A stretch of DNA of 64,000 nucleotides from an uncultured Acidobacteriota bacterium (lineage in GTDB: Bacteria > Acidobacteriota > Vicinamibacteria > Fen-336): contig CAVUMT010000001.1 in NCBI GenBank assembly GCA_963742595.1, forward strand, positions 3,854,314-3,918,313, written 5' to 3'. Below are positions 43,726-62,378 of the stretch, piece after piece. Position 1 is the first letter of the stretch. Every line of letters starts with the position of its first letter. Below the pieces are notes generated by a model. It was not told the DNA's origin and searched no databases. It saw nothing but the letters and a program-made list of their open reading frames with translations. Both the position numbers and the translations under genes were made by a program.

Positions 43726-44032
43726 GTTCGATGTCGTCGCTAGGCTGTCGTACCAGTGCAACTCGGCCCACGGAGTTGACCGTGAGACAGCCGGACCATC
43801 GCTTCACCCTTCATCTCGAGCCGTGCCTCGTCCGCCGCATCGCATCGTTCGTCGGCCTCCACGCTCATGCTAGCCCTCGTCGTGTCAACCAGCTCTTCAG
43901 CCGCGCTCCAATTCCCGGAAGGCGGGGGAAAAAGGTGCGGCCCAGGTCGGCGAGGAGAGGATGGTCTGGACAAGCCTCACGAAGGATGCCGAGCCAATGA
44001 TCGAAGGCGTCTTGAGTCATCGGCTCAGCCCT

Positions 44033-44668
44033 TCATGAATCGGTGCTCAGACCGAGGCGCTTTGCGACGAGTTCCACGGTACCGCGAAAAGGTGAGCTAC
44101 CCGCGCCTCCCAGTGCACGCTGGATCTGTTCCCGAGCCTCTGACAAGAGGCCCTTCTCAACAGCGAGCATCGCGTGGACAAGGGGCGCTTGGCTCGGTAT
44201 CAAGCCCGGAAGGCCTCCGCTCTCCCGCAGGCCACTCAGCAGTGCATCGCTGTTCACGAACCTGTCGAGGAAGGGCACGCCATATGCTATGACGGCGTCC
44301 GCGACTTCCCCTGAGACCGCGGCCAAGTCAATGTTGGCGTCTACCTTCCACCAGTGATCGCACCGCGACGGCATGAGAGCGCCGATCCGCTGACAGACGG
44401 GGTAGAGAGCCGTTGCCGGGTTCGAAGGTATCGGCCTCGAGGTCCACAAGGTGTAGAGCCAGGGCGATGTCACCCCGAGGTTGACCGTAAACGAACCGGA
44501 TGTCGCAGTACCCCACTGACTCGACTGAAAGTGGACGCCGTGGATCACACCTTGATGAAGACGATGGAGGTGAAGCCCCTGTCGACGAAAGCCGGCGCTC
44601 TTGAGGCCTCGGTCGCTGGCAGCCTTCGCCGCCGCCGCCATGGCGAGCCGTGTTCGTGAAGGTGGCAT
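44033..44668 (-). CDS. DUF4304-like hypothetical protein; possible distal-most cassette or flanking gene
   Basis: Intact 211 aa; begins immediately after attC_a; no clear attC downstream. Confidence 0.4.
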   Translation of the reverse strand: MPPSRTRLAMAAAAKAASDRGLKSAGFRRQGLHLHRLHQGVIHGVHFQSSQWGTATSGSFTVNLGVTSPWLYTLWTSRPIPSNPATALYPVCQRIGALMPSRCDHWWKVDANIDLAAVSGEVADAVIAYGVPFLDRFVNSDALLSGLRESGGLPGLIPSQAPLVHAMLAVEKGLLSEAREQIQRALGGAGSSPFRGTVELVAKRLGLSTDS

Positions 44669-44692
44669 CTCACCTCAGTCGGCCGAACACTG

Positions 44693-44796
44693 CGGATCAC
44701 CTGCGAAGCCGCGACTCAATGAAGAAAGGTGCGTCTGGGTACTCTTCCTCCAGGTAAGCCACGCACTTTGTCAGGTGCATCCGCTTGTTGGGCGGC
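44693..44796. other. Integron attC-like recombination site (a)
   Basis: gccgAACACtgcggatcacCTGCGAAG...CTTTGtCAGGtgcatccgcTTGTTgggc; arms pair with bulged bases. Confidence 0.7.
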
Positions 44797-44810
44797 TCAC
44801 GCGACTCCCT

Positions 44811-45206
44811 TTAAGGATGCCTTGCCTTCAGGCTGATGATGCACCAGAAGCCCATGACAGCGTGACCAACGACGATGGGCCAGAGGGCGATCCCGGACAC
44901 TCCCCAGACGAGAGCCGCATGGACAAGAATCGTAAGGACCCCGGCGTTGTAGAGCGCCATCGCGCCTACAAGGCCCCGCACCGCGCGAGTGCCTTCGTCA
45001 TGCCGCGCCAGCCAGCATGTAACTCCCAAAGCCAGCAGCGCCACCCCTGCGACACGCGCGACGACGAGCGCAGCGACCGAATCGAGTAATGAACCCAGTA
45101 TCAGAGACGACACGAGGGAGGGTTGTGCCAATAGCCCAAGACCAGTAGCGGCTTCCAGCACCGCGGTGACGGTCAGAACCTTGTTCATGCCCGATCTCTC
45201 CAGCAC
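44811..45206 (-). CDS. Cassette ORF: small 4-TM membrane protein
   Basis: Intact 131 aa; hydrophobic. Confidence 0.5.
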   Translation of the reverse strand: MLERSGMNKVLTVTAVLEAATGLGLLAQPSLVSSLILGSLLDSVAALVVARVAGVALLALGVTCWLARHDEGTRAVRGLVGAMALYNAGVLTILVHAALVWGVSGIALWPIVVGHAVMGFWCIISLKARHP

Positions 45207-45299
45207 GCGTCGCCCATGGGTTGTCTATCATCCTCGGGAACTCCGCCTCGGTCTTCCACCGAAGCGTCTGGGCTTGACCCGTTTTGGTAGACAGTCTCT

Positions 45300-46153
45300 C
45301 TATGCCGCCGGTTGATCGCCAACAGAGTAACGCCGTTCCATCTCGGCAGGGCTCGCGTATCCGAGGGACGAGTGTCGGCGCTGCTGGTTGTAGAACACCT
45401 CGATGTAGTCGAACAGCTGGTCCTTGGCATCACCTGGGGTATCGAACCGCTCGCCGAGCTCGAACTTGAGCGTCGAGAACCAGCTCTCCATGGCAGCGTT
45501 GTCGTAGCAGTTGCCACGGCGGCTCATGCTGCAGGTGATTCCACGAGCGGCCGAGTGTCCGACGGTAGTCCTCGCTGGCGTACGTACTGCCCTGGTCGGA
45601 GTGATGAAGCAGCCCGGCGTGCGGATCCGCGGCGCTGCAGCGCCTGGTCCAGGGCTCGAAGGGTGAGATGGCGATCGTTGACAGCGCTGATCGCCCAGCC
45701 GACGATGAGCCGCGAGTACAGGTCGAGGACGGCGGCGAGGTAGAGCTGCCGCTTCCCGCGAGCAACTCCGTGGTGTCACCGACCCACCGCTGGTTCGGCG
45801 ATGTGGCGTCGAACCGGCGGGCGAGCAGGTTCGGAGCGACCGGCTGATCGTGCTCGCTCATCGTGGTGCACTGGTACCGGCGACGGACACGAGCCTTGAG
45901 GCGCCCCTGGCGCATGAGTCGCGCGATCCGCTTGCGGCCCACGTGCTCTCCCTGAGGCCAGCTCGGCGTGGACGCGCGGGCTGCCGTAGGTTCGGCGACT
46001 GCGCTCGTGAGCCGCCTGGACCAGAACCGTCGAGCCTCCGATCCTCGCGCGCCCACCGCGACTCCGGGCGCTCCTGCCAGGCGTAGAAGCCAGCCCGAGA
46101 CACCGAGAGCACAGCGCACATCCTCGAAATCGGATACGCCGCCTTCTCCGCAT
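45300..46153 (-). pseudogene. IS3 transposase OrfB (DDE integrase), at least 2 extra frameshifts
   Basis: ...NQRWVGDTTELLAGSG..., ...CYDNAAMESWFSTLKFEL...YNQQRRHSSLGY... in 3 frames. Confidence 0.7.
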
Positions 46154-46168
46154 CGATGAACGCGAACC

Positions 46169-46498
46169 TCACGCGTTCTCCTTCGCGAAGAAGGCCGCGG
46201 CTTTTTTTAGGATGTCGCGCTCCATCCGCAGCTCGCGGTTCTCCTTGCGCAGCCGCGCGAGCTCCGCACGCTCCTCGGTGGTCAGGCCCGTCTTGCCCTT
46301 GGATCGGTCCGCGCTCGCATGGGAGACCCACGTCGCCACGGAATTGGCACTCAGGTCCAGGTCGCGAGCAACCTGGGCGATCGTCTTGCCTTCGTCCAGC
46401 ACCAGGCGCACCGCCCCGGCCTTGAACTCCTCCGTGAACGCCCGCCGCAGACGCTTGCTCCTACCCTCTTGCTCCTTCATGCTCGACATCGTATCCAC
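46169..46498 (-). CDS. IS3 transposase OrfA (HTH)
   Basis: MDTMSSMKEQEGRSKRLRRAFTEEFKAGAVRLV...; AAAAAAG heptamer at its end. Confidence 0.8.
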   Translation of the reverse strand: MDTMSSMKEQEGRSKRLRRAFTEEFKAGAVRLVLDEGKTIAQVARDLDLSANSVATWVSHASADRSKGKTGLTTEERAELARLRKENRELRMERDILKKAAAFFAKENA

Positions 46499-46538
46499 CT
46501 TTCATCGGGTGTCTACGAAATCGGGTCAAGCCCAGTCC

Positions 46539-46630
46539 GCCCAACACCGGGGTTGAGCTGCAAGCCTCCCCCGGCCAGCCGGGCCCGCAACCGTGGCTTG
46601 TCAGGTCCAGATACCCCTTGTTGGGCCGCG
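46539..46630. other. attC-like site (b)
   Basis: cccAACACcggggttgAGCTGCAAG...CTTGTCAGGTccagatacccCTTGTTgggc; IS copy 1 inserted 2-4 bp from its edge. Confidence 0.65.
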
Positions 46631-46641
46631 CCTTCACTCCG

Positions 46642-47397
46642 CTAGCCGGTAGACCTGACGAGCAAAGCCGACCGGGTCTTGGGCTTCGCCACTGATGGCC
46701 CTGTCAAGATAGCCCAGTCGGAGTTCTGAATGAGCGCCTCCATAGCATGGAATGGCTTTGCCGGAGGCCTCCACGCTCCGTCATGGCAGTGACTCAGAAG
46801 AGTTCCTCCATCCTCCAATCTGATCGCCAGCGCGTCGAGGGCGGCTTGCCGCTCGTCTGGAGCGAATACCTGAAGGGTGCGACGCTCAATGATGAGGTCA
46901 AACGGACCCCTACAGAGGGACGGGTCCACAATGCTGCCGACCACGTACTCCAAGGTACCGCCGGGTCGTCGGAGACTTGGGTTGAGCATCCGCTCGGATT
47001 CTCCGGGCCGAGGATCCCAGGTCTGTGCCAGCCTCAGGGCGACGGGAGATATGTCGAGGGCAACCACTTGAAGGCCTGCTTCGGCAAGGACCCGAGGCTC
47101 CTGCGACATCCCGCAACCAGCACAGAAAACCCGCGTCATGACATGACGGTTCATGAATTCAACTAGTTCGGTATCGTCGCAGAACATGTCGAACAATGGC
47201 GGGGCAAGTCCGTGGGCCACCTGCTCGCTCCAGTATTGGTCCCATGCAGCCGGGTCCCTTGTAGTGGAAGGAGGAAGGAGCCACCCGAGCTCATCTGCCC
47301 TTGCCTTCAGCCGCGAGGCCGCCAAGGCCCTGGCCGAGGTCCCCGGGTCGTAGCCTCTGGTGAACCAGTCCAGAAGGCCGCGAAGCGCTCGGATCAT
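46642..47397 (-). CDS. Cassette ORF: class I SAM-dependent methyltransferase-like
   Basis: Intact 251 aa; ...VFCAGCGMSQEPRVLAEAGLQVVALDISPVA... Confidence 0.55.
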   Translation of the reverse strand: MIRALRGLLDWFTRGYDPGTSARALAASRLKARADELGWLLPPSTTRDPAAWDQYWSEQVAHGLAPPLFDMFCDDTELVEFMNRHVMTRVFCAGCGMSQEPRVLAEAGLQVVALDISPVALRLAQTWDPRPGESERMLNPSLRRPGGTLEYVVGSIVDPSLCRGPFDLIIERRTLQVFAPDERQAALDALAIRLEDGGTLLSHCHDGAWRPPAKPFHAMEALIQNSDWAILTGPSVAKPKTRSALLVRSTG

Positions 47398-47413
47398 CGC
47401 CCCCTCCCTAACG

Positions 47414-47488
47414 TCGGCCCAACACCAGATCAGCTGTGGCGCTCAAGTCCTGCCGGCGCCGTCAGCCGCATCTTGTTGTTCTACGGCC
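47414..47488. other. attC-like site (c)
   Basis: ggcccAACACcagatcAGCTGtggcgc...gcgccgtCAGCcgcatctTGTTGTTc. Confidence 0.6.
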
Positions 47489-47496
47489 TCGCTCTT

Positions 47497-47718
47497 CTAT
47501 GAGGCTCGAACAGCCAGGATGTCGTTCGCGGCTACCGAGCGCAGGTCGGCCGCCGGCAACGTAAGCAAGGCCTTGGTGTGACCAGACGCGCGAACAAACT
47601 CCACCTCGAGAGCATCTGATCCGTGGAGCTCAACGACGGCACCGAGATCACCCGCACGCAAACCATGCTCAGGGAGATCTCGGTTTAGTACCACAGTATC
47701 CAGCAGCGCAAACTTCAT
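47497..47718 (-). CDS. Cassette ORF: DUF4926-like small protein
   Basis: 73 aa; ...VVLNRDLPEHGLRAGDLGAVVELHGSDALEVEF... Confidence 0.5.
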   Translation of the reverse strand: MKFALLDTVVLNRDLPEHGLRAGDLGAVVELHGSDALEVEFVRASGHTKALLTLPAADLRSVAANDILAVRAS

Positions 47719-47720
47719 GC

Positions 47721-48050
47721 TTACCTCGGGCGAACGGTGACGAGCCTGACATCAGCGCGCCCTGGTTCCTGGACCCACACCGTCACCACCGCTAGGCTTC
47801 CTGTGGGTCCAGTCAGATCGCCACGAACAGTGTACTTCCGCCCATAGTCGAAGTCCTCCACCTCGGCAACGTCTCCCACCACCGCGATGCGCCGAACTTC
47901 GGCAATAAAGTCGTCCGCCTTCGCATCGTCAAAGCCTACAGCGGCGAAGACCCTGGCCTTGAATCGCCCAACAGGATGGGTTGGGGACAGGAGGTAGGCG
48001 CGAATCTTGTGGGCGTCGATCTGGACCGCCTCAGCCTGCGGGAGCTTCAC
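47721..48050 (-). CDS. Cassette ORF: DUF6883-like partner of DUF4926 (putative toxin-antitoxin-like pair)
   Basis: 109 aa; 2 bp upstream of the DUF4926 ORF. Confidence 0.4.
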   Translation of the reverse strand: MKLPQAEAVQIDAHKIRAYLLSPTHPVGRFKARVFAAVGFDDAKADDFIAEVRRIAVVGDVAEVEDFDYGRKYTVRGDLTGPTGSLAVVTVWVQEPGRADVRLVTVRPR

Positions 48051-48607
48051 TCCTCGTCTCTCTCCTCACGGTCCGTCGAACTCCAAGGATCGGCTGCGAA
48101 GCACGACTCAATGACGCCGGCGCGCGAAGGCGCGCCTACGAAAGGAACACCGCGCTTCGTCAGCTGCATCCGCTTGTTCGGCTGCCGCTGCAGGACTTCA
48201 GAGGACTCAATGTCAACAGCAAGGTGCCAGCGCAGGCCACGATTCTCTGCCTCTTCCAGGAGATGCTGAAAGCCGACCAGTTCCAACGTCACGCCCCTGC
48301 TCTCGGGGATGGCTCCGGGATGATCGTCGAGGTACGCGATCAGAGCTCGAACGGTAGCCAACCCTTCGGCAGGCGCAAACCATTCTTCTTCGGGAACGGT
48401 CTCGGCTGTGAGACCTGTGTTGAACTGCTCAGCTTCGGCCAAAGCGTCCGCGGGATTCATGCTGAAGAAGGACATCAGCGAAGCAACCCCCAGCTTCTCC
48501 GCAAGCTTCCCAAGTTCTTCGTCGGCGCGCGAAAGATCATGACCGTCGACGTAAGTGTCAAAGCCGGGAGCGTCGGTGTTCAGAACGATGTAGAGCGCAG
48601 CGCCCAT
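48047..48607 (-). CDS. Cassette ORF: hypothetical protein (C-terminus reads through attC_d)
   Basis: 186 aa; C-terminal ...NKRMQLTKRG... encoded by the attC arm. Confidence 0.45.
   Translation of the reverse strand: MGAALYIVLNTDAPGFDTYVDGHDLSRADEELGKLAEKLGVASLMSFFSMNPADALAEAEQFNTGLTAETVPEEEWFAPAEGLATVRALIAYLDDHPGAIPESRGVTLELVGFQHLLEEAENRGLRWHLAVDIESSEVLQRQPNKRMQLTKRGVPFVGAPSRAGVIESCFAADPWSSTDREERDEE
48072..48184. other. attC-like site (d)
   Basis: gtcgAACtccaaggatcgGCTGCGAAGc...gCTTCGtCAGCTgcatccgcTTGTTcggc. Confidence 0.7.
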
Positions 48608-48620
48608 CGTTAGCTCAGGT

Positions 48621-48697
48621 CAGCCGAACACTGAGGATAACCTGTGAAGCTCCTTCGCTTGCGCTGGCTTCGCCAGGTTCATCTCTTGTTGGGCCGC
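48621..48697. other. attC-like site (e)
   Basis: gccgAACACtgaggataaCCTGTGAAGc...gCTTCGCCAGGttcatctcTTGTTgggc. Confidence 0.7.
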
Positions 48698-48963
48698 CCC
48701 GTCGATCCCCCGAGGCGCGACACGCGAATCCGGGAACAACTCTGCTGCAGCTTCTGGTTGAGATAGCTAGGATCGCGTGCAGCATGACGCTTGATCCGAT
48801 AGATGTTGTATGCGTCCATCAGGCAGTAGCAGGTGACGAGCATGAGGGGAATCAGCGTCGCCTTGCCTGGGTACTTGTAGGCGAGGCCGAGTAGTCCCAC
48901 GATTACCACGCTCAGGAACTTGACCGACGCCTGAGATTGCCGGAGCGCCGTCTTGTACTTCAC
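48679..48963 (-). CDS. Cassette ORF: small 2-TM membrane protein
   Basis: 94 aa; hydrophobic. Confidence 0.4.
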   Translation of the reverse strand: MKYKTALRQSQASVKFLSVVIVGLLGLAYKYPGKATLIPLMLVTCYCLMDAYNIYRIKRHAARDPSYLNQKLQQSCSRIRVSRLGGSTGRPNKR

Positions 48964-49168
48964 GCCCTCTCACCCCGTAGCAGTAACGCTTGCGCCATGC
49001 TTCGCGGAGGGAACGCTGGCGACCGTCACTTGCACGACGCCGTTAGCAGCAGACGTCGCAGAGCAACGGACCTCAACGTCGGACTGGAATTCCTCCGCCC
49101 AAGCCCACGACGCTGCGACCGCACTCCTCGCACCTCCACGCGTCTGCTTCCCGTTCGACCTTATCCGT

Positions 49169-49253
49169 CCGCAGAACACTGCGGATGAGCTGCGAACGGC
49201 GCCTCCGTCTTGGCTCGGGCGACGTTCGTCAGCTCCATCCGCTCGTTCGCCCG
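49169..49253. other. attC-like site (f)
   Basis: gcagAACACtgcggatgAGCTGCGAAcg...cgTTCGtCAGCTccatccgcTCGTTcgc. Confidence 0.7.
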
Positions 49254-49262
49254 CTCGCTCAC

Positions 49263-49502
49263 CTACTTCGGAACATCCTCCAGTCGGGTCCCGAGGCCGG
49301 CTCTGATTGCAGTCCGTGCCTGCTCGATCTGGCGTAAAAACTCCGGATGATTCTCAAGCCTGTACTCGAACCAGTCATCCTCGCTTTCGAAACCGATCAA
49401 CACGCCGGCTGGTCTTCCGTGGCGGGTGATCAGAATCTCCCGGTCGGCTGCGAGCTTTAGGTACCGCGAGAGGTCGTCCTTCACCTCCGCCAAGGCGACC
49501 CG
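49263..49502 (-). CDS. Cassette ORF: Phd/YefM-family antitoxin
   Basis: ...LAEVKDDLSRYLKLAADREILITRHGRPAGVLIGFESEDDWFEYRLENHPEF... Confidence 0.6.
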   Translation of the reverse strand, partial: RVALAEVKDDLSRYLKLAADREILITRHGRPAGVLIGFESEDDWFEYRLENHPEFLRQIEQARTAIRAGLGTRLEDVPK

Positions 49503-49797
49503 GCGGGGTTGGGGTAGCCTCTTGCGCGAGCCAGCCCTCCGCCTGCTCCTTCGGGATGATGGCGAGGACTTCAACCGTCGTTTCCGTGACGTCATAGAAC
49601 ACCCTAACCTCATTCACCCTGAGCCGATACTGCGGCCGATTCAGTCCACGCAAGCGCTTGATACGACTCTTGCTGAGCTTGGTCGGCTCGTGGCGCAGGT
49701 GCAGCTCGATGGCATCCCGGACTCCCGTCTGGAAGTCAGCTCTCAGGGCCTTCAGACCCCTGACAGCCTGAGGGGCCAAGACGATCTCGAACGGCAT
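49500..49797 (-). CDS. Cassette ORF: RelE/ParE-family toxin (ORF track extends to 49375 without a stop)
   Basis: MPFEIVLAPQAVRGLKAL...SRIKRLRGLNRPQYRLRVNEVRVFYDVTETTVEVLAIIPK... Confidence 0.6.
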
Positions 49798-49844
49798 CTG
49801 GCCAGATTATAGCCAGAATGCTATCTCGTCGCTCCCTCAATGTC

Positions 49845-49958
49845 GGGCGAACACCAAGGATCAGCTGCAAAGCGCGACTCAGTTAAGGAAGCCGATCCGC
49901 GGAACCCTTCCTCCAAGTCTAGCTCGCGCTTTGCCAGCTGCATCCGCTCGTTGGACGG
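49845..49958. other. attC-like site (g), long-loop variant
   Basis: cgAACACcaaggatcAGCTGCAAAGcgcgactcag...ctagctcgcgCTTTGcCAGCTGcatccgcTCGTTggac. Confidence 0.65.
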
Positions 49959-50345
49959 CTCCCTCGATCTCTGGCTTTACGTGGTGCGTTCCATGGCTCT
50001 TCGAACTCTCCAAGCGTAGATCCCGCTTCACGTAAGGCCACTCGCTTCCCAAGGAGGCGTGGCGCGGCGCGTGCTCGCCCTGCAAGGGATGTGACGCCCC
50101 TCGGGACGCCATAGCTCCCTTCATTGCCCAGCAACCTCATGATGCCAGATCCCCGACGAGTGCCGCGAAGGTCTGCGCTCTCGCGGGAGACTCCACTGCC
50201 CAGCTCACTCTTCGCTCGCGGAGTCCTCTCGATTGCCGTGGGGGCGGCGCATCCCTTGCTACCACTGCACGCGACGTGACACGCCGGATTCGAACGACGA
50301 TCTCCACCTACTCACCGCGTCCGTTTCCCACACGATCCGTTAGGC
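49958..50345. repeat. About 390-bp cassette-like element (copy 1), no convincing ORF; duplicated at 55591-55980
   Basis: Near-identical to 55591-55980 (starts ggctccctcg(a/c)tctctggctttacgtggtgcgttccatggctc...). Confidence 0.75.
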
Positions 50346-50428
50346 CGTCCAACACTGGATTGAGCTGCAAAGGCCGCGGTTCCTCGCCGGCGCGGACTTC
50401 GTCTGCTCCAATCCTTTGTTGGGCGGCA
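50346..50428. other. attC-like site (h)
   Basis: gtccAACACtggattgAGCTGCAAAGg...cTTCGtCTGCTccaatccTTTGTTgggc. Confidence 0.7.
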
Positions 50429-50441
50429 CCGTGATTCCACC

Positions 50442-50780
50442 TCATCGTAACGCTGACGCATCGCCCGTGCGACGCGCACGCCTCACGCGGCCGAGCCATA
50501 AGACTAGCCCCACGAACAGGGATGCGGCGATCAGGGATGCCACTGCTGCGTCGACCACGGGACCAACAATGTATCTCGCCTCGAAGATGTTGAGGCTCCC
50601 CCAGAGGAGCCAACAGAGTCCGCCCGCAACGACGTTCAACGGTAGGAAGAGCCACGAGAAGACTGCTTCGAACGCGGAGAACCAGGACTCGCTCTGATTG
50701 CTGGTCACGAAGACCCACCAGCAGAGTATGTGGAGACCTGAATAGCCGTAGACGGCGCTGACAACCCACCGTACGTTCAT
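50442..50780 (-). CDS. Cassette ORF: small membrane protein
   Basis: 112 aa; 3-4 TM. Confidence 0.45.
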   Translation of the reverse strand: MNVRWVVSAVYGYSGLHILCWWVFVTSNQSESWFSAFEAVFSWLFLPLNVVAGGLCWLLWGSLNIFEARYIVGPVVDAAVASLIAASLFVGLVLWLGRVRRARRTGDASALR

Positions 50781-50794
50781 GATTCAGTCAATCT

Positions 50795-50880
50795 CAGACA
50801 AGTTGGTTCGGAGGCGGCCAGTGTGGCTTCGTGCCCCTCAGCATGTCCGCCCGCTCACGAAGGGCCCAATGTTCCTACCG
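50795..50880. other. Degenerate attC-like site (i)
   Basis: ggccagtgtggCTTCGTGcccc...gctCACGAAGggcccaatgttcc; correct position between cassettes but atypical arms. Confidence 0.35.
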
Positions 50881-50901
50881 GCCGCTCGCGGCGCGACGAG
50901 T

Positions 50902-51189
50902 TCATGCGACCTCCATCTCATGTGGGGCAAGGCCAATGCTGTGGCTGCGGGATCCGTCGCTTTCATCCCAGACCCTCTCGACCCAGGCAGAGCCGAACTC
51001 GTCGATCTCATACACCTCAAAGACTGCCCCGAGCATGGACTCGATGTCCGGCCGCTCATCAACCGGCAGCTTTGCGATTAGCGACACCGGAATCTCAAGT
51101 ACACGCACTCTTGTGCCCACCGTGATCTGCCGGCCTGACCGGTCGGTCGTCGCCTTATGTTGCTGCATCGTCAAATGCCCGCCCAACAC
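50902..51189 (-). CDS. Cassette ORF: hypothetical soluble protein
   Basis: 95 aa; no family recognised. Confidence 0.4.
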   Translation of the reverse strand: MLGGHLTMQQHKATTDRSGRQITVGTRVRVLEIPVSLIAKLPVDERPDIESMLGAVFEVYEIDEFGSAWVERVWDESDGSRSHSIGLAPHEMEVA

Positions 51190-51258
51190 TGGATTAAGCT
51201 GCGAAGCGCGTCCAATCTAGCCACCGCGCTTCGTCAGCTTCAATCCATTGTTCGACGG
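51177..51258. other. attC-like site (j)
   Basis: cgcccAACACtggattaAGCTGCGAAGcgcg...cgcgCTTCGtCAGCTtcaatccaTTGTTcgac. Confidence 0.75.
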
Positions 51259-51295
51259 CCCTTCACTTGGAGGCGTCGCCTCTCAACCACCGTTC

Positions 51296-51631
51296 TCATC
51301 CGGTCACGACACCCAAAACGACCAGGACGCTCACGCCAACGGCGAAACATGCCGTCAGCACCATCTCTGAGTTGGCAAGTCCAACGCCCGCTCTCCGCCC
51401 TCGAACGATGCACACCACGGAGACCAGTAGGTACACAGGTGACGCCCAAAGCGCCATTCCCAGCCCCACGAGAAGCAGAGTAGCTGGACTCGGAGATGTA
51501 TGGACGTTGAGAGCCGGCGCGGCCAGGCCTCCTAGCACGCCCAGACCAACGACTACCCATCCTGATCGCACGAGCCATGACGGGAGGACGCCGTCGTCAA
51601 CTGTAGAATCGCTGTGCCCAACTCCGGTCAT
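51296..51631 (-). CDS. Cassette ORF: small membrane protein
   Basis: 111 aa; 3 TM. Confidence 0.45.
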   Translation of the reverse strand: MTGVGHSDSTVDDGVLPSWLVRSGWVVVGLGVLGGLAAPALNVHTSPSPATLLLVGLGMALWASPVYLLVSVVCIVRGRRAGVGLANSEMVLTACFAVGVSVLVVLGVVTG

Positions 51632-51687
51632 CGCGCCCCGGAGACTGAGTTGTCAGCTCGGCAGGTCATCATCTCCGCTTCACTCGG

Positions 51688-51766
51688 TCCGTCGAACACC
51701 GGGGATAAGCTGCGAGCGTCCAATATGCTCAACGCTCGTCTGCTTCATCCCCTTGTTCGACGCCGC
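51688..51766. other. attC-like site (k)
   Basis: gtcgAACACcggggataAGCTGCGAGCGtccaatatgctcaACGCTCGtCTGCTtcatccccTTGTTcgac; near-identical to site p. Confidence 0.75.
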
Positions 51767-52307
51767 CGCCCTTCCGCCGAGCCACACCACTGGGCTCAGA
51801 CTCTACTCCCCAGAATGCCGATAGCGCTTGAATCATCGAACGCGCACGCGACCTTGCGGTGTACTGGTGCGCGAATCCGACAGCTGCCATGAACACGAGC
51901 CAGCCACCCAGGAACCTGGCTTCGTTCGCATGCCAGGCGAGGCCGAGAAGGCTGATGCCAGCCAACACGCACACAGCCGAGACGAGGTTGCCCCAGGGAT
52001 CCTCGGTGAGCTCAACCCTCACCATGCTCGCCATACTTTCGGCTGGCTTGACGACGCCTTGGGCACGGAAGCGGCTTCGGAGGACTAAGTAGAGGATGTC
52101 GAACTTGTCGCCTTCGGCTGCGACGCTCGCGAGGAACAGGCCGCGTGGCGACCATCGATGACTTGGCGGAACCTGCCGGACATCCGTCGCCTTCCTCAAC
52201 CTCGCGACGACCTCTGCGGGAGGCTCCCCTAGGGTGATATCAGCCGCGGCGATCATTCGCCACATGGCCAGCGTGCCTCCAGCGCTCCTCGACAAGGCGG
52301 CGAACAC
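51729..52307 (-). CDS. Cassette ORF: hypothetical membrane protein (C-terminus ...QGDEADER encoded by attC)
   Basis: 192 aa ORF; shares its attC-encoded tail with the ORF at 54637. Confidence 0.4.
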   Translation of the reverse strand: MFAALSRSAGGTLAMWRMIAAADITLGEPPAEVVARLRKATDVRQVPPSHRWSPRGLFLASVAAEGDKFDILYLVLRSRFRAQGVVKPAESMASMVRVELTEDPWGNLVSAVCVLAGISLLGLAWHANEARFLGGWLVFMAAVGFAHQYTARSRARSMIQALSAFWGVESEPSGVARRKGGGVEQGDEADER

Positions 52308-52378
52308 TGAGATGAGCTGCGAGGGCCGCGCCGCCTCGCCGTCGCGGACCTCGTCAGCTCCATCTCATTGTTGGGCGT
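52297..52378. other. attC-like site (l)
   Basis: gcgAACACtgagatgAGCTGCGAGGgccgcg...cgcggaCCTCGtCAGCTccatctcaTTGTTgggc; gagatg/catctc covary. Confidence 0.75.
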
Positions 52379-52449
52379 CTGGTGATTTGGCTGACCTGCC
52401 CGGGCCACCTCGGCTTGCCCGCTGCCGGCGGAGCGAGGCAGGCACGCCC

Positions 52450-52866
52450 TCACTTGCGGTACGCAGACGCAAATGGCCCGTAAAGCACCGGAGCCTCTTT
52501 GTCGCGAGAGCGCTTCTCGATGACTACCGTGACGTTGTCACCCGACCGATACACCGCGTACCGCGGCCACGACGACCCACTGGAGGAGATGCGACATTTC
52601 GAGTAGTCGGGTCCGAGGGGGGGACCGGCGTAAACGTGTCTCGGGTCAGACAGCTGCCCTTTCGATTCGAGAGTCTTGATAAGCGCTTCAAGCGCCGGCT
52701 CGCACTCCTCCAGCGGCACCGCTTTGCTCGCCACGGCGTTCACGGGCGACGCGATCGTGCTCGCAAGGAGGGCACAGAGCACGCCCCTCGCAAGCCAGCG
52801 CGGCGGGGAGGCGAAGGCAAGATCGTTTTCCGTCTGCATGGACCCTCTATTGCACGCCCAACACAT
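52450..52866 (-). CDS. Cassette ORF: small secreted protein
   Basis: Signal-like ...LARGVLCALLASTIASPVNA... Confidence 0.45.
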   Translation of the reverse strand: MCWACNRGSMQTENDLAFASPPRWLARGVLCALLASTIASPVNAVASKAVPLEECEPALEALIKTLESKGQLSDPRHVYAGPPLGPDYSKCRISSSGSSWPRYAVYRSGDNVTVVIEKRSRDKEAPVLYGPFASAYRK

Positions 52867-52933
52867 GGATCAGCTGCGAGCGGCGTCCATTCTCGCCGCG
52901 CCGCTCGCCAGCTGCATCCATTTGTTATCCGGC
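52855..52933. other. attC-like site (m)
   Basis: gcccAACACatggatcAGCTGCGAGCGGCGtccattctcGCCGCGCCGCTCGcCAGCTGcatccatTTGTTatcc. Confidence 0.75.
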
Positions 52934-52953
52934 TGCTCCTTCCCGCGCAAGGC

Positions 52954-53451
52954 TCAGGGCTTCCCTGAAGCGGGCGCAACCACGAGAACACCAGTATCGG
53001 GATCCTTGGACCGCTCCTCGAAGGCAGCCTGGAGAGCCGCGTCCTTGAGGAGAGCATCGAAGTAACGCTTGGATGCGGTAACCAGGGCCGCGTAGAAGTC
53101 CTCTGCGTTCAGGACTGTGAGACCGCCATCCGTCGTGAGATGGACTTGGCTGTTGTGGTGAGTGAGCTTGTAGGGACCGGGTGAGAACCCATGAACGGCT
53201 GCGTTGCGGAGCTTCCACAGAGGATCGGCGTGGCTCGGGTACGGATCGGCGAAGTAGTCCTTCAGGAATCCCCTGAAGCGCGCACCATTTCCTTCGTTCG
53301 GCTTGAGAAAGCCACCGAGCGCCTCGATAGCCGTGAGGGAACAGATGAACGAGAGAAAGGCGCCATCATCGTTCAGGAGGCAGGGAATGCCCCCCAGGTA
53401 AATTCGGCCGAAGTTGCCTGCAACGTGCTTGATTAGGTCCGGCGTGCTCAT
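52954..53451 (-). CDS. Cassette ORF: hypothetical protein
   Basis: Intact 165 aa; soluble; no family recognised. Confidence 0.45.
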   Translation of the reverse strand: MSTPDLIKHVAGNFGRIYLGGIPCLLNDDGAFLSFICSLTAIEALGGFLKPNEGNGARFRGFLKDYFADPYPSHADPLWKLRNAAVHGFSPGPYKLTHHNSQVHLTTDGGLTVLNAEDFYAALVTASKRYFDALLKDAALQAAFEERSKDPDTGVLVVAPASGKP

Positions 53452-53482
53452 GCTCGTCTCCAGCCGCGCTCTTCAGATGTCC

Positions 53483-53556
53483 GGATAACACTGCGTTCAG
53501 CTGCGAGCGGCGTCCATTCTCGCCGCGCCGCTCGTCAGCTGCAACGCATTGTTCGA
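53483..53556. other. attC-like site (n)
   Basis: ggatAACACtgcgttcAGCTGCGAGCGGCG...CGCCGCTCGtCAGCTGcaacgcaTTGTTcgac; same loop as site m with covarying stem hexamer. Confidence 0.75.
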
Positions 53557-53564
53557 CGGTGCCT

Positions 53565-54062
53565 TCAAGGGTGCTCGCTCGCGGGCGCAGCGACACGTCG
53601 CTTGCGACGGTTCAGGTATGCCGCGCCGGCCCACCCGATCGCCCACCACTGAGCGCAGCTCACGACGACGAATACTCCAGTGGCGACCCAACTCGCAGCC
53701 CGTAGCCCCAGCCGGCCTTCGAAGGCCGCGGAGGTCAGAGCAGCGAAAAGCGCGCCTGGGAGGTTCACCAAGATCGCCGCCACCTTGAGGGGGCCGTCCT
53801 CCCAGTAGTGGCCTCCGAAGCCGCGCTCGGCCAGGACGAGCATCGAACGCGTACCGGAACGCAGATGGAACTCGACCCCCGTGGCGGTGTGAACCTCCCA
53901 CGAGTCGGGTGTCACAAAGTACTCGGCAGGCAGGCGAGGGGTGCTGACGACGAGGGCCAGCCAGAACGCTACGTGAACCGCTACGAGGCCGTTGGCGAGT
54001 GCAGTCACTCGCTCAGACACCCACGCCACCAGTTGCTCGCTCCTTGATCCATGTCCGAGCAT
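53565..54062 (-). CDS. Cassette ORF: membrane protein
   Basis: 165 aa; 4 TM. Confidence 0.45.
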   Translation of the reverse strand: MLGHGSRSEQLVAWVSERVTALANGLVAVHVAFWLALVVSTPRLPAEYFVTPDSWEVHTATGVEFHLRSGTRSMLVLAERGFGGHYWEDGPLKVAAILVNLPGALFAALTSAAFEGRLGLRAASWVATGVFVVVSCAQWWAIGWAGAAYLNRRKRRVAAPASEHP

Positions 54063-54064
54063 CC

Positions 54065-54140
54065 GTCGAACACTGGAGTTAAGCTGCGAAGCTCCGAAGT
54101 CTACCAGGCTTCGTCAGCTTCAACTCCTTGTTCGGCGGCC
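54065..54140. other. attC-like site (o)
   Basis: gtcgAACACtggagttaAGCTGCGAAGCtccgaagtctaccagGCTTCGtCAGCTtcaactccTTGTTcggc. Confidence 0.75.
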
Positions 54141-54161
54141 TCGCCCCACCCCCGAGATGTA

Positions 54162-54656
54162 TCACAGCAAGGGGATGTTGTAGTCGGGATACCGGAGTGG
54201 CGTCAGGTGCACCAACGCTGATATCGCGCACAAGAGCACGACGAGGAGAACCAGAATGATCCGCTCGGTTGGGCTTGTGGTCACTCCGTTCTGGCGTGCG
54301 CGGAAGACCTTCACCAGGGCGACTGGAATCCACACGAACGCTGCGAGATAACCCCAGCTGCCCAGCCACGCCAAACCGAAATCGACGTTCATGATACGAA
54401 GGTCGAACTGCGCACCACCGTTAGCGTCGATACGCAGTGGCTGCTCCGGCTGCCACCATTGGCCCGGCAGTCTAGGGAGGAGTAGCAGGAGATCAAAGAG
54501 GACGAGAGCAATCCCGAACGCACAGAGCCACCCGACCAGTCGCATTCGTCGGCTCAACACGGGCTGCGCGGTCGTCACGCGTCGCTCTCCAACGGTCCGC
54601 CGAACACTGGGGATAAGCTGCGAGCGTCCAATATGCTCAACGCTCGTCTGCTTCAT
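54162..54656 (-). CDS. Cassette ORF: membrane protein
   Basis: 164 aa ORF; likely starts at internal MRLVGWLCAFG...; 3-4 TM. Confidence 0.45.
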   Translation of the reverse strand: MKQTSVEHIGRSQLIPSVRRTVGERRVTTAQPVLSRRMRLVGWLCAFGIALVLFDLLLLLPRLPGQWWQPEQPLRIDANGGAQFDLRIMNVDFGLAWLGSWGYLAAFVWIPVALVKVFRARQNGVTTSPTERIILVLLVVLLCAISALVHLTPLRYPDYNIPLL

Positions 54657-54673
54657 CCCCTTGTTGGACCGCC
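54597..54673. other. attC-like site (p)
   Basis: gccgAACACtggggataAGCTGCGAGCGtccaatatgctcaACGCTCGtCTGCTtcatccccTTGTTggac. Confidence 0.75.
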
Positions 54674-55152
54674 CCGTCGATCCACCTCACTGAGCCACCG
54701 AACCGGCGCGCCAGTTCTCTCGCGAGTTCCTCTGCCACCGTTCCGATAATGTGGATGGGGGCGTCAGCCGCGAACGCGTCAGGCCACTCCACCAGAGGCG
54801 CATCACCTCCATAGATGAAGAGGTGATCGGCCAATTCGGGTTCTGCATTTGCTGCAGCGAGTCTGCCGAGTTCTTCAAGGACCGCAGAAGTGAAGGGGAG
54901 GCGCCACTGCTCGGAGCGTGGCCACATGGTCTGCGGAGCTGGGAGGTACGGGCCCGGCACTCGAAGCTGCTCGAGCGACTGCCGCACCGACTGGGATTGG
55001 GAAGTCCCCTCCAGAAACAGAGTGCTTCCGCCGATCGCAACTGAACCCACGTTCTCGAAGAACCGCTGGGCATTAGTGACACCCAGTACCTCCCACCGCG
55101 GCTGGTCCCACAGACTCAACGGCACTCTAGCAGTCACGTTGCCTGCGTCCAA
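54637..55152 (-). CDS. Cassette ORF: hypothetical protein (tail ...QGDEADER from attC)
   Basis: 171 aa; soluble; no family recognised. Confidence 0.4.
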   Translation of the reverse strand: MDAGNVTARVPLSLWDQPRWEVLGVTNAQRFFENVGSVAIGGSTLFLEGTSQSQSVRQSLEQLRVPGPYLPAPQTMWPRSEQWRLPFTSAVLEELGRLAAANAEPELADHLFIYGGDAPLVEWPDAFAADAPIHIIGTVAEELARELARRFGGSVRWIDGAVQQGDEADER

Positions 55153-55164
55153 TCTCGAAAGGTC

Positions 55165-55242
55165 GGTCCAACACCGGGGATAAGCTGCGAAGCTCCATCG
55201 CTTGCGCCGGCTTCGTCTGCTTCATCCACTTGTTGGGCCGCA
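55165..55242. other. attC-like site (q)
   Basis: ggtccAACACcggggataAGCTGCGAAGCtccatcgcttgcgccgGCTTCGtCTGCTtcatccacTTGTTgggc. Confidence 0.7.
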
Positions 55243-55386
55243 CCGTGATTCGACCGCACTAAGGACCGGTCTCTGACGTGTGGTACGCCACGACGCGCCA
55301 GGCATCGCTTGTACGCACGTAGACCTTCATGAAGCGCCAGTGGGCTTGACCCGATTTCGTAGACACCCGATGAAAGGTGGATTACG

Positions 55387-55590
55387 ATGTCGAGCATGAA
55401 GGAGCAAGAGGGAAGGAGCAAGCGTCTTCGACGGGCGTTCACGGAGGAGTTCAAGGCCGGGGCGGTGGGCCTGGTGCTGGACGAAGGCACGACGATCGCC
55501 CAGGTTGCTCGCGACCTGGACCTGAGTGCCAATTCCGTGGCGACGTGGGTCTCCCATGCGAGGGCGGACCAATCCAAGGGCAAGACGGGC
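55387..55590 (+). pseudogene. IS3 OrfA, truncated after ...SKGKTGLT by internal insertion
   Basis: MSSMKEQEGRSKRLRRAFTEEFKAGAVGLVLDEGTTIAQVARDLDLSANSVATWVSHARADQSKGKTGLT then unrelated sequence. Confidence 0.7.
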
Positions 55591-56118
55591 CTGACGGCTC
55601 CCTCGCTCTCTGGCTTTACGTGGTGCGTTCCATGGCTCTTCGAACTCTCCAAGCGTAGATCCCGCTTCACGCAAGGCCACTCGCTTCCCGAGGAGCGTGG
55701 AGCCGCGCGGCTGCCTGCAAGGGATGTGACGCCCCTCGGGACGCCATAGCTCCCTTCATTGCCCAGCAACCTCATGATGCCAGATCCCCGACGAGTGCCG
55801 CGAAGGTCTGCGCTCTCGCGGGAAGACTCCACTGCCCAGCTCACTCTTCGCTCGCGGAGTCCTCTCGATTGCCGTGGGGGCGGCGCATCCCTTGCTACCA
55901 CTGCACGCGACGTGACACGCCGGATTCGAACGACGATCTCCACCTACTCACCGCGTCCGTTTCCCACAGCGATCCGTTAGGCCGTCAACCGCGGATCAGC
56001 TGCAAAGCGCGACTCAGTTAAAAAAGCCGATCCGCGGACCTTCTTCCAAGGAGACTGCGCTTTGCCAGCTGCATCCGCTCGTTGGACGGCTCCCTCGCTC
56101 TCTGGCTTTACGTGGTGC
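55591..56118. repeat. Insert inside IS copy 2: 390-bp element copy 2 + attC-like site (55983-56091, near-identical to site g) + 36-bp direct repeat of the element start
   Basis: Circular permutation of the unit attC_g + element seen at 49845-50345; direct repeats ggctccctcgctctctggctttacgtggtgcgttc at 55591 and 56083. Confidence 0.7.
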
Positions 56119-56983
56119 GTTCATGGCCTTGCGGAGAGGGCGGCGTATCCGATTCGAGGATGTGCGCTTTTCTCTCGGTGTCTCGGGCTGGCTTCTATGC
56201 CTGGCAGGAGCGCCCGGAGTCGCGGTGGGCGCGCGAGGATCGGAGGCTCGCGGTTCTGGTCCAGGCGGCTCACGAAGGGCAGTCGCCGAAGCTACGGCAG
56301 CCCCCGCGTGCATGCCGAGCTGGCCTTTCAGGGAGAGCACGTGGGCCGGAAGCGGATCGCGAGACTCTGCGCCAGGGGCGCCTCAAGGCTCGTGTCCGTC
56401 GCCGGTACAAGAGCACCACGATGAGCGAGCACGATCAGCCGATTGCTCCGAACCTGCTCGCCCGCCGGTTCGACGCCACATCGCCGAACCAGCGGTGGGT
56501 CGGTGACACCACGGAGTTGCTCGCGGGAAGCGGCAAGCTATACCTGGCCGCCGTCCTCGACCTCTACTCCAGGCTCATACGCTGGCTGGGCGATCAGCGC
56601 TGTGAACGATCGCCATCTCACCCTTCGAGCCCTGGACCAAGCATCTGCAGCGCCGGGATCCGCACGCCGGGCTGCTTCATCATTCCGATCAGGGCAGTAC
56701 GTACGCCAGCGAAGACTACCGTCGGACACTGGCCGCTCGTGGAATCACCTGCAGCATGAGCCGCCGTGGGGACTGTTACGACAACGCGGCCATGGAGAGC
56801 TGGTTCTCGACGCTCAAGTTCGAGCTCGGCGAGCGGTTCGATACCCCAGGTGATGCCAAGCACCAGCTCTTCGACTACATCGAGGTGTTCTACAACAAGA
56901 AGCGCAGACACTCGTCCCTGGGATACGCGAGCCCTGCCGAGATGGAACGGCGTTACTCTGTTGGCGATCAACCGGCGGCATAG
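56119..56983 (+). pseudogene. IS3 OrfB (DDE transposase), frameshifted
   Basis: ...EKAAYPISRMCAFLSVSRAGFYAWQERPESRWAREDRRL..., ...NQRWVGDTTELLAGSGKLYLAAVLDLYSRLI..., ...CYDNAAMESWFSTLKFEL... Confidence 0.7.
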
Positions 56984-57014
56984 AGAGACTGTCTACCACA
57001 ACGGGTCAAGCCCA

Positions 57015-57324
57015 AGCGGTCAACACGCCCGTCTCGCCGACGCCAGCGGTGTAGAGCCGTTTCCCGTTCAGGTGCACCTCGAACCCGACCATGATCAGCG
57101 TGCCCTCCAATCTGTCGGTGTCATCGCCCGCTTAGCAACGTCCGCAGAACACTTAGTATCTTGCAAGGATAACGCCTTTGGCCTTGCGTGGTTTGCAAGG
57201 TAACGCCGAGGATCCAGTTCCGAGGAGGGGGAAGTAACGCCCGGGAAGGAGGTTGCGGGGGGCGGGTGGTTTCACGAGGGTGATAGCTTGCGTCGGATAA
57301 CGTTTTGGCCACGCGAAGGCTTGG
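57015..57324. other. Candidate attI / Pc region between IS copy 2 and the intI 3' end
   Basis: Contains gcagaacactt (half-attC-like junction) followed by direct repeats cttgcaaggataacgcc / tttgcaaggtaacgcc (IntI-binding direct-repeat-like). Confidence 0.35.
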
Positions 57325-58390
57325 TCAGGGGGTCGGGTCGGCGGCGATGGAGTCGAGGGGGCTGCGGACGCCGCGACCGCCGCGGTTGAGGACGTGGGTG
57401 TAGATCATGGTGGTGGAGACGTCGCTGTGGCCCAGGAGCTCCTGGATGGTGCGGATGTCGTAGCCGCTCTCCAGCAGGTGCGTGGCGAACGAATGGCGGA
57501 GGCTGTGGCAGGTCGCGGGCTTTGAGATGTTGGCGGAGCGCACTGCGTTCTTGAAGGCTCGCTGAATGGCGGATTCGTGCAGGTGGTGGCGGAGCCGCTC
57601 GCCCGTCTTTGGATCGACGTACAGCCGGCTGGCCGGGAAGACCCACTGCCAGGGCCACTCGCGACGAGGCGTTCGGGTATTTTTCGGCGAGGGCGTGGGG
57701 AAGCCGCACGGTGCCCACACCGGCCCGCCGATCGTTGTCGTAGCGGGTGCGGACACGGTCGATGTGGGCGCGCAGTGGAGGGGCCAGGCGATCCGGGCAG
57801 CATCGTGACCCGGTCCTTGTCGCCCTTGCCGGAGCGGACGGTGAGCTCTCCCCGAGCGAAGTCGACGTCCTTGATCCGGAGCTGGGCGCACTCGAGGACG
57901 CGGAGGCCCGCGCCGTACATCAGCGACGCCATCAGGCCGAACGCACCGTTCAAGTGGCTCAGGATGAGCGCCACCTCCTGCCGCGTGAGGGTCTGGGGCA
58001 GCCGCTCCGGCCTCTTGGCGCGCACCACCTTGTCCAGCCCCTCGAGCTCGCGTCCCAGGACTTCGCGGTAGAGGAACAGCAGCGCGCTGAAGGCCTGGTT
58101 CTGCGTGCCGGCGCTCACACTCGGCGTGTACGGCGAGGCGCGTCAGGTAGGCGCCGACGTCGTCTGCGCCCAGGGACTCCGTGTCGCGGCCCCGGTGGAA
58201 CGCGCAATAGCGCTGGATCCAGCCGAGATACGCCTTCTCCGTTCGGCGGCTGTAGTGACGCGTCCGAAGCAGATCGCGCGTGCGGTCGATCAGCGGCTTG
58301 GGCGGACCGCCGTTGGAGCGCCGTCGAACCTGTCCGGTGACCACGATGCGCGCCGGGCCGGTGAAGTCGGTACGCGGGTCGGGCGGGCGG
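57325..58390 (-). CDS. intI: Integron integrase IntI (tyrosine recombinase with IntI-specific insertion), two frameshifts; maximal ORF to 58491
   Basis: ...[24 protein letters not shown]..., ...[36 protein letters not shown]...[37 protein letters not shown]..., ...[106 protein letters not shown]. Confidence 0.85.
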
Positions 58391-58567
58391 AAATCGGGGG
58401 GAGGCGCGACGCTCGTCGTCACGCGCCCTCCGCGGGCGCGAGGCGGGGACGTCGCCGGCCAGGGCGGAGTGCCGCCGAGCGGATTGCCCATCGGCCAAGC
58501 CTAGTCGGGAGGGCGGACGGGGGAGGTCCGGAACGGATTGCGGTCTGGACGACACACCGGTGCGCCC

Positions 58568-60069: not shown

Positions 60070-60172
60070 ACGGCTTCCGCGAGGACATGGTACGCCCGTG
60101 CGCAAGCTCGGTCTGTCAACTCGGAAAAGATCGGCTACGATCAGGCGGGTCGTCCAACGCGAACGGCGGGGC

Positions 60173-61986: not shown

Positions 61987-61996
61987 CCGGCGCCGC

Positions 61997-62378
61997 CTAG
62001 CTGGTGGCGCGCGACTCCAGCATCGTGTTGACGATGGTCAGGAGCTTGTTCGCCGTGAAGGGCTTGTTGATGTACATGACGGCCCCCGACTCGAAGCCCT
62101 CGGCGAGCGCCTCGCCCCCGCCCTTGGCGGTGAGGAAGATGACGGGCACGTCCTTGAGGCGCGGGTCTTCCTTGATCTTCCGGCAGACGGTGAAGCCGTC
62201 GACCTCCGGCATCATCACGTCGAGCAGGACGAGGTCGAAGGCGTGCTCGGCCAGGAGCTTCAGGGCCTCCGGCCCCGCCGCCCGCGGCCGTCACGTCGAA
62301 CCCCTTCTGCTCGAGGATCGTGCGCTCGAGGCTCAGGATGTTCTCGTCGTCGTCCACGACCAGGATCCTCTTGGCCAT
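61997..62378 (-). CDS. Single-domain response regulator (CheY-like), one frameshift
   Basis: MAKRILVVDDDENILSLE..., ...LVLLDVMMPEVDGFTVCRKIKEDPRLKDVPVIFLTAKG... Confidence 0.7.

Follow-up and report, generated by a model that had tools for sequence, protein, structure and literature searches.

Does the region between 43.8 and 58.4 kb of the Acidobacteriota DNA studied here hold an integron and, if so, of which type? The DNA, a 64,000-nucleotide stretch of contig CAVUMT010000001.1 (GenBank assembly GCA_963742595.1, positions 3,854,314 to 3,918,313 of the forward strand) from an uncultured member of the Vicinamibacteria, is referred to below as the window. A preliminary description, made from the letters of the sequence, had noted a tyrosine recombinase gene beside an array of attC-like repeats and proposed a chromosomal integron. 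We examined the integrase gene (intI), the attC array and the attI candidate one by one, and each supports that proposal. All components of an integron are present, namely intI, an attI candidate, 17 cassettes bounded by attC sites and one terminal cassette, and the whole is flanked by chromosomal housekeeping genes. The GC content drops from ~0.70 to ~0.62 across 43–57 kb. We conclude with high confidence that the region is a chromosomal integron, and that its architecture is of the reverse kind, in which intI and the cassettes are co-oriented.

The intI gene lies on the minus strand at 57325..58422, with its stop codon at 57327–57325. Its open frame reaches an ATG at 58491 (open reading frame (ORF) 57325–58491, minus strand) and includes the WPWQWVF patch, but we place the start at a GTG at 58422 because of homology to P0001, an intact 364-amino acid 'integron integrase' from a JGI metagenome. 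The ORF is where the preliminary description had located it, but its frame is broken three times, a detail which that description had missed. The breaks are single-base insertions (+1) within conserved motifs: a T at ~58119, one base in a CCCGG run at 57797–57793, and a C at 57661. The middle of the ORF as written is rich in Pro, Arg and Ala, and three-frame translation showed that the conserved blocks absent from it are found in the other two frames. When the three bases are removed, the repaired protein matches the integron integrase model TIGR02249 in a single stretch (positions 2–314/315) with a score of 459.2 bits (cutoff 265), compared with 148 and 143 bits on the XerC and XerD models. 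It aligns with the Vibrio cholerae integrase VchIntIA (PDB 2a3v) over residues 9–318 at E = 5.8e-84, straight through the IntI-specific segment and with one single-residue gap just upstream of it, and differs from VchIntIA and TIGR02249 in an N-terminal extension of ~45 residues and in the frameshifts of the gene as written. The HxxR, H and Y motifs are present, as are the box I R and the K after frame repair, which completes the catalytic set R-K-H-R-H-Y. The recombinase is therefore a true IntI, as had been proposed, and not a generic XerC/D protein devoid of the IntI patch. Since it scores 344 on the class-1-type equivalog NF011946 (cutoff 435), it is not a member of that class.

Outside the three inserted bases, intI retains all conserved motifs, contains no stop codon and encodes a protein 94% identical to P0001, which reads through all three break points. 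On the P0001 contig, intI follows a gene for a 496-amino acid B12-binding radical SAM protein, PNP_UDP_1 and PfkB, the same synteny as at 58.5–62 kb in the window; the integrase gene thus occupies the same chromosomal position, after the B12-radical SAM gene, in one close relative. The nearest named relatives, found in a scan of GTDB representatives that gave none above 67% identity, are metagenome-assembled genomes (MAGs) of Candidatus Eisenbacteria (67%) and Vicinamibacteria (66%), and a metagenome scan for intI relatives gave nothing closer than 65%.

In order to define the attC sites, an inverted repeat at 51690–51762 was used as the seed of iterated nhmmer searches, which retrieved 17 identically oriented copies between 44678 and 56090. 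A covariance model (R1) was then built from these repeats and run over the whole 64-kb window with filters off. R1 detected exactly 17 sites, with scores of 56.8–86.3 bits (E 4e-11 to 7e-18) and all on the minus strand, while the next-best independent match in the window reached 14 bits and none outside the 17 sites was higher. The repeats are thus real, lie where they had been reported and exceed chance; the earlier count of at least 16 cassettes becomes 17 full attC sites and one decayed half-site. The sites are 75–119 nt in length and are spaced 500–870 bp apart, the ORFs between them lie on the same strand, the cassettes measure 501–867 bp, and the array begins 175 bp from the intI stop, which together make up a tandem array.

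Read on the minus strand, each attC site comprises an R'' box, an imperfect stem, a variable loop, the return stem and an R' box. The R'' boxes are of the form GYCSAAC (GCCCAAC, GTCCAAC, GTCGAAC and similar, fitting RYYYAAC) and the R' boxes of the form GTTSGRC (GTTGGAC, GTTCGGC, GTTCGAC and similar, fitting GTTRRRY), and both occur in all 17 sites. The boxes quoted in the preliminary description are present, but they were read on the plus strand and correspond to the bottom-strand complements of R' and R''. Pairing within the stems is near perfect: 96.3% of stem cells can pair, compared with 84.2% in shuffled alignments (0 of 500 reached the observed value) and 28–42% in register-shifted controls. 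Compensatory double changes are seen in 9 of the 18 stem pairs, with 36 such cells where 11.2 are expected. When folded with DNA parameters, the sites are 1.4 to 9.5 SD more stable than dinucleotide shuffles (z down to −9.5), and the bottom strand is predicted to form the R''–L''/L'–R' stems. Canonical attC sites carry their extrahelical bases on the R''–L'' arm of the bottom strand. Here, a conserved bulged T and a conserved bulged C lie on the 3' arm of the plus strand, which is that same arm. The attC architecture that had been claimed, with conserved boxes and variable loops, is accordingly found in every one of the 17 sites, together with bulges and covariation.

GC-rich imperfect hairpins that follow ORFs also resemble REP elements and terminators, and the repeats might be generic intergenic palindromes (REP/MITE-like) or terminators that lie beside a XerC/D-type recombinase by chance. 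We give this explanation next to no credence: the RYYYAAC and GTTRRRY boxes have a fixed polarity, the loops vary in length and the bulges are conserved; the remaining 50 kb of the window contain no such repeats; the terminator scan of 56950–58800 gave no T-tract terminator; in other genomes R1 finds arrays only beside intI genes and in legal geometry; and the recombinase scores 459 bits as an IntI against 148 and 143 bits as XerC or XerD. An Rfam scan at gathering thresholds gave no match anywhere in the window, which says nothing against the repeats.

The 17 sites, all on the minus strand, are numbered toward intI from the distal end. Nearest to intI is attC17 (55988..56090; R'' GTCCAAC at 56087–56081, R' GTTGACG at 55989–55983), which lies inside an insertion sequence (IS) described below and is 91% identical to attC7. 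It is followed by attC16 at 55162..55241 (86.3 bits), attC15 at 54595..54672 (85.6 bits; R' GTTCGGC at 54604–54598), attC14 at 54062..54139 (76 bits), attC13 at 53479..53559 (77.2 bits), attC12 at 52856..52933 (72.8 bits), attC11 at 52299..52377 (76.9 bits), attC10 at 51687..51762 (82 bits; folding z = −9.5), attC9 at 51179..51259 (84.3 bits) and attC8 at 50345..50427 (80.7 bits). Further along the array are attC7 at 49842..49959 (78.8 bits; long-loop type, 118 nt), attC6 at 49167..49253 (76.1 bits), attC5 at 48619..48697 (74.5 bits), attC4 at 48071..48185 (73.4 bits; long-loop type), attC3 at 47413..47487 (61.4 bits; R' GTTGGGC at 47423–47417), attC2 at 46535..46628 (63.1 bits), where a distal IS begins 4 bp past the end of the 7-nt R' box, and attC1 at 44678..44796 (70 bits; long-loop type), the last complete site. 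Some sites are near-identical in pairs: attC10 and attC15 share 94% identity, and attC12 and attC13 have a common stem and loop. At the distal end of the array, after a DUF4304 cassette and adjoining the chromosomal MOSC gene (42985–43761), lies a decayed terminal half-site (43825..43860, minus strand; 14 bits, E = 0.31) that retains only the R''/L'' arm, GCCGACGAACGATGCGATGCGGCGGACGAGGC, and no L'/R' arm.

Since intI lies on the minus strand together with the attI candidate and all 17 attC sites, it is transcribed toward its own array. Two IS copies in inverted orientation flank attC2–16, and an IS-mediated inversion was considered as the cause of the co-orientation. It was ruled out because the GAC/GAC target duplication of the distal IS is intact and because attC1, located beyond the IS pair, is oriented as attC2–16 are; inversion since the insertion of the distal IS is thereby excluded, and the co-orientation is native.

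To place this layout, related loci were fetched by IntI homology, oriented with intI on the plus strand and scanned with R1. In 17 of them, R1 matches lie downstream of intI on the plus strand, as in the window; these include L001 as well as loci from Vicinamibacteria, other Acidobacteriota, Candidatus Eisenbacteria, Nannocystaceae, Omnitrophota and Elusimicrobiota. L001 carries 20 R1 matches (45–79 bits), and arrays directly downstream of intI are also present in L004, L002, L003 and others. Eight loci have R1 matches upstream of intI on the minus strand, from Nitrosomonas, Halothiobacillus, Crenothrix, Comamonas, Contendobacter, Steroidobacteraceae, one verrucomicrobial and one cyanobacterial source. 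The geometry is legal, of either type, for 59 of the 60 R1 matches, and R1 is in this way validated independently as an attC model at other intI loci. In a crude neighbour-joining tree, whose backbone is poorly resolved, the IntI of the window groups with those of L001, L004, L002 and L003, which are all co-oriented loci; among the sampled relatives, identity to it is similar (57–68%) for IntI proteins from co-oriented and from classical loci.

Because intI is co-oriented with the cassettes, attI lies downstream (3') of the intI stop. The candidate site (57142..57302, minus strand) consists of four CGTTA[C/T] direct repeats, at 57302–57297, 57239–57234, 57205–57200 and 57174–57169, followed by the core ACTAAGTGTTCTGCGG at 57157–57142. 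Crossover is predicted to occur at G|TT, whose G is at 57150, and the right half of the core is identical to the R' end of attC6. An ACTAAG-(Y)GTTRRRY junction recurs ~190–310 nt past the intI stop in L001 (CAGACTAAGTGTTGGGCAG), L003 (GATACTAAGCGTTCTGTGG) and L004 (TCCACTAAGTGTTCGACTG), in each case after TTATCC-type repeats, which lends comparative support to the attI call. Most of the other co-oriented relatives examined have a GTT-type junction 70–320 nt past the stop, without the full ACTAAG core. The preliminary description was correct in expecting an attI candidate beside intI, and its core recurs in relatives, but the position 3' of the gene had been overlooked. For most integrons the attI site is unknown (PMC4889954), and the present one is a candidate that the comparison with relatives supports.

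Several observations weigh against the reading of the region as an integron of the co-oriented type. The intI ORF as written scores 231.8 bits on TIGR02249, below the cutoff of 265, and matches in two fragments, one N-terminal and one C-terminal, with the box I arginine and the segment of the catalytic lysine out of frame. A promoter and terminator scan of 56950–58800 revealed no sigma-70-type promoter in the stretch that separates intI from the array. An IS disrupts the first cassette, and the position next to attI is therefore no longer native. Finally, R1 was derived from the very repeats that it detects, though it was cross-validated on other loci.

The three frame breaks of intI were initially read as marking a true pseudogene. 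That reading was downgraded after frame use was mapped over the whole window and broken housekeeping genes were stitched. A Viterbi map of the phase of GC content at third codon positions (GC3) revealed same-strand frame switching at very high GC3, and this switching is patchy: frames change every 70–350 bp in 1–12300, 27000–28400, 34100–39950 and 58700–62300, and stretches at 12.8–26.6, 28.4–33.8 and 39.9–43.8 kb are clean. The frame-broken genes are a GlgC-like gene (4.2–5.3 kb), methylmalonyl-CoA mutase (7.6–8.9 kb), acyl-CoA dehydrogenase (33.8–35.0 kb), a Y_Y_Y/GGDEF-type protein (37.1–39.9 kb), the B12-radical SAM protein (58.7–60.2 kb), whose gene adjoins intI and changes frame ~8–10 times, and MTAP with PfkB (60.3–62.0 kb). 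After stitching across the frame hops, methylmalonyl-CoA mutase, which had matched in three pieces with 230.9 bits, gave a single match of 543.8 bits. Stitching also recovered all three domains of acyl-CoA dehydrogenase, and restored the full 166-position domain and the B12-binding domain of the radical SAM protein. Five genes taken from the clean stretches gave full-length Pfam matches. That so many core genes should be pseudogenes is implausible, and it is simpler to assume that indel errors affect the assembly in patches. Since housekeeping genes across the window are broken in like manner, the breaks in intI are more readily attributed to the same cause; they are probably assembly errors, and the integrase is probably intact in the organism.

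It could be argued instead that the integron is a dead relic, in which the three +1 frameshifts are real, the IS copies have decayed and the array is frozen, resembling the integrase-less attC clusters known as CALINs. Chromosomal integrons whose intI has been inactivated are well documented (PMC3108266, PMC4889954). Beyond the three independent breaks and the fragmented, sub-threshold ORF, such a history would fit the two IS copies, which differ by 13 indels in 903 bp and are both frameshifted, as well as the decayed terminal attC and the disrupted first cassette. However, comparable breaks affect distant genes of core metabolism (those for methylmalonyl-CoA mutase, acyl-CoA dehydrogenase, the GlgC-like protein and MTAP), and their patchy distribution, with clean stretches between, is implausible biologically and typical of consensus indel error. 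Apart from its three insertions, moreover, intI is as similar to its intact ortholog as given above, with motifs kept and no stop, and the attC stems are still nearly perfectly paired. We consider a dead integron unlikely and retain the reading of a probably intact integrase obscured by assembly error. In practice, intI should not be called a pseudogene on data of this kind: the call would be erroneous or, at the least, unsafe.

The two ISs belong to the IS3 family. The distal copy (45269..46534, minus strand; 1266 bp) has all the features by which that family is recognized: TG...CA terminal repeats (left inverted repeat TGGGCTTGACCCGATTTCGTAGACA), an orfA with HTH_Tnp_1, an orfB with HTH_21, rve and rve_3, a slippery site of the A-AAA-AAG type (CTAAAAAAAGCC) and a 3-bp target duplication, the GAC/GAC repeat mentioned above. 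The proximal copy (55341..57014, plus strand) is inverted relative to the distal one, shares 94–97% identity with it and interrupts the first cassette. Both of its terminal inverted repeats are kept, but it has neither a clean target duplication nor the slippery region. Its 118-bp orfA/orfB junction has been replaced by 522 bp of array (55596–56116). Insertion sequences within cassettes are in themselves common, being found in 23% of complete integrons (PMC4889954). The proximal copy departs from the IS3 family in having its frameshift window exchanged for an attC-containing piece of array.

The 522-bp insert is made up of a copy of the body of a cassette here called X, attC17 and a 33-bp X tail, and is bounded by the microhomologies GAC (3 bp) and GAACGC (6 bp). 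Insertion of a cassette circle by IntI was rejected as its origin, because the parts of the insert stand in permuted order (X tail, attC, X body) and the junctions do not fall on the G|TT of R'. Illegitimate recombination or misassembly is a possible origin. An assembly artefact from collapsed or mis-joined repeats, which would concern this sub-feature only, is suggested by the patchy consensus errors of the window and by the fact that the mosaic junctions lie in repeated sequence (three copies of the X tail, two of the IS). We regard it as doubtful: the copies have diverged (91–97% identical) and can hence be told apart, and the microhomologies at the junctions are what real illegitimate recombination would be expected to leave. 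Two array fragments on the minus strand flank the proximal IS, at 57015–57091 (MVGFEVHLNGKRLYTAGVGETGVLTA...) and 55242–55340 (...WRFMKVYVRTSDAWRVVAYHTSETGP*), and because they are together too short for one gene, neighbouring sequence of the first cassette or cassettes was probably deleted when the IS inserted.

To our knowledge, and with no search aimed at it, no IS copy with its frameshift window exchanged for an attC-containing piece of an array has been described. If the structure is real, the proximal copy, with its attC site and cassette, might be mobilized in trans by the nearly identical IS copy 10 kb away and so serve as a transposable vehicle out of the integron. We hold this to be very improbable; if true, it would offer one explanation of how CALINs, whose abundance is unexplained, arise and of how new arrays are seeded.

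The cassettes carry the kinds of genes that had been reported for them. A 251-amino acid SAM-dependent methyltransferase (TPMT, Methyltransf_11/25/12) is encoded at 46642..47397, and a two-gene, toxin–antitoxin-like cassette at 47497..48050 encodes DUF6883 (47721–48050) and DUF4926 (47497–47718) proteins; both are on the minus strand, as is a cassette with a ParE-like toxin and a Phd/YefM-like antitoxin (49263..49797). In the latter, the ParE-like ORF precedes the Phd/YefM-like ORF and, as written, overlaps it by ~240 nt; either the gene order is reversed, with the toxin first, or another frame error distorts the pair. The last cassette ORF (44033..44668, minus strand) encodes a 211-amino acid DUF4304 protein. 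At least five cassettes encode small proteins with two to four transmembrane-like segments, among them one with four such segments (44811..45206, minus strand) and others at 50442–50780, 51296–51631, 53565–54062 and 54162–54578. Ten further cassette ORFs gave no Pfam match. The cassettes yielded no genes for resistance or defence, and PADLOC reported no defence system, only generic methyltransferase similarity.

Cassette X (49852..50352, minus strand; 501 bp) has no ORF, and a 96% identical copy of it is present at 55593–56007. Both copies contain a 19-nt inverted repeat whose arms (GCAAGGGATGTGACGCCCC / GGGGCGGCGCATCCCTTGC) are separated by 140 nt, at 50082–50259 and 55717–55895. This repeat, for which Rfam gave no match, may have a regulatory role or belong to a structured RNA.

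At the nucleotide level, this array resembles those of L001 and L004 only in its attC sites, which are 75–89% identical to theirs, and two cassette proteins have homologues inside the L001 array. Judged from sequence similarity, these resemblances fit a shared cassette pool. Some relatives also show closely spaced attC runs, ~300–325 bp apart and with nearly identical scores, at 14322–15987 in L003 and 12544–13327 in L001 (attC of 133 nt in the L001 run), which point to tandemly duplicated cassettes that are tiny or devoid of ORFs. Two co-oriented arrays contain transposable elements of their own: an IS3-family relative of the IS of the window in L053 (16264–17100) and a DDE_Tnp_1 element in L001 (18722–20092).

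How such an array would work may be proposed from established integron biology. IntI would bind the folded bottom strand of attC, which here is the plus strand of the window, recognizing the conserved extrahelical bases and the R and L boxes. It would cut between the C and AA of the R' box, equivalent to a position between G and TT on the top strand, so that cassettes could be excised as circles by attC × attC recombination and re-inserted at attI, and cassettes of such an array may be expressed. Indirect signs of such recombination are the duplicated cassette, the near-identical attC pairs of the array and the cassette homologues in the array of another genome. The locus consists of 17 cassettes, each closed by an attC site, followed by one last cassette with a decayed attC. 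Later changes to the array included cassette duplication, the two inverted IS3-family insertions, one of which disrupted the first cassette, and, probably, the microhomology-bounded replacement inside the proximal IS copy.

Outside the integron, at ~35050–35280 on the plus strand, the gene for acyl-CoA dehydrogenase is closely followed by sequence encoding a FitA-like ribbon-helix-helix antitoxin domain (63 bits). The segment downstream of this domain, 35281–35907, may encode its toxin partner.

The integron combines features of two known groups. With the sedentary chromosomal integrons, such as the Vibrio cholerae superintegron and those of Xanthomonas, it shares a chromosomal location, many cassettes with closely similar attC sites and mostly unknown functions, toxin–antitoxin pairs, IS copies in the array and duplicated cassettes. 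It differs from them in that intI is reversed and attI is located 3' of intI. Cury et al. assign integrons to the sedentary class if they have >19 attC sites or are present in all genomes of a species (PMC4889954); with 17–18 sites, the present array falls just under that rule of thumb. In its layout, with intI, attI and all 17 attC sites on one strand, it resembles instead the reverse integrons described for Treponema denticola and other Treponema species (PMC3607928), and the integrases of Spirochaetota are 'generally in reverse orientation' (PMC9668308). The host lineage, a high-GC environmental bacterium, differs from that of the Treponema type, and the likeness is one of layout. Integrons have also been reported in Acidobacteriota and Gemmatimonadota (PMC8618304). 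The reverse layout is thus an already known, atypical type of integron, and the locus is a new example of a known system.

What the locus adds is an integron with clear limits, from a high-GC lineage that is uncultured and poorly sampled, with an array that is complete from attI to the decayed terminal site. Three aspects of it are worth keeping: the caution about intI pseudogenes in an error-prone assembly, the IS copy with an attC site, and the shared attI core. Among the sampled relatives, co-orientation is the rule for MAG loci labelled as Acidobacteriota, Eisenbacteria, Nannocystaceae, Omnitrophota and Elusimicrobiota, and the core ACTAAG-GTTRRRY, preceded by TTATCC-type repeats and shared in this group, could help to annotate attI sites.

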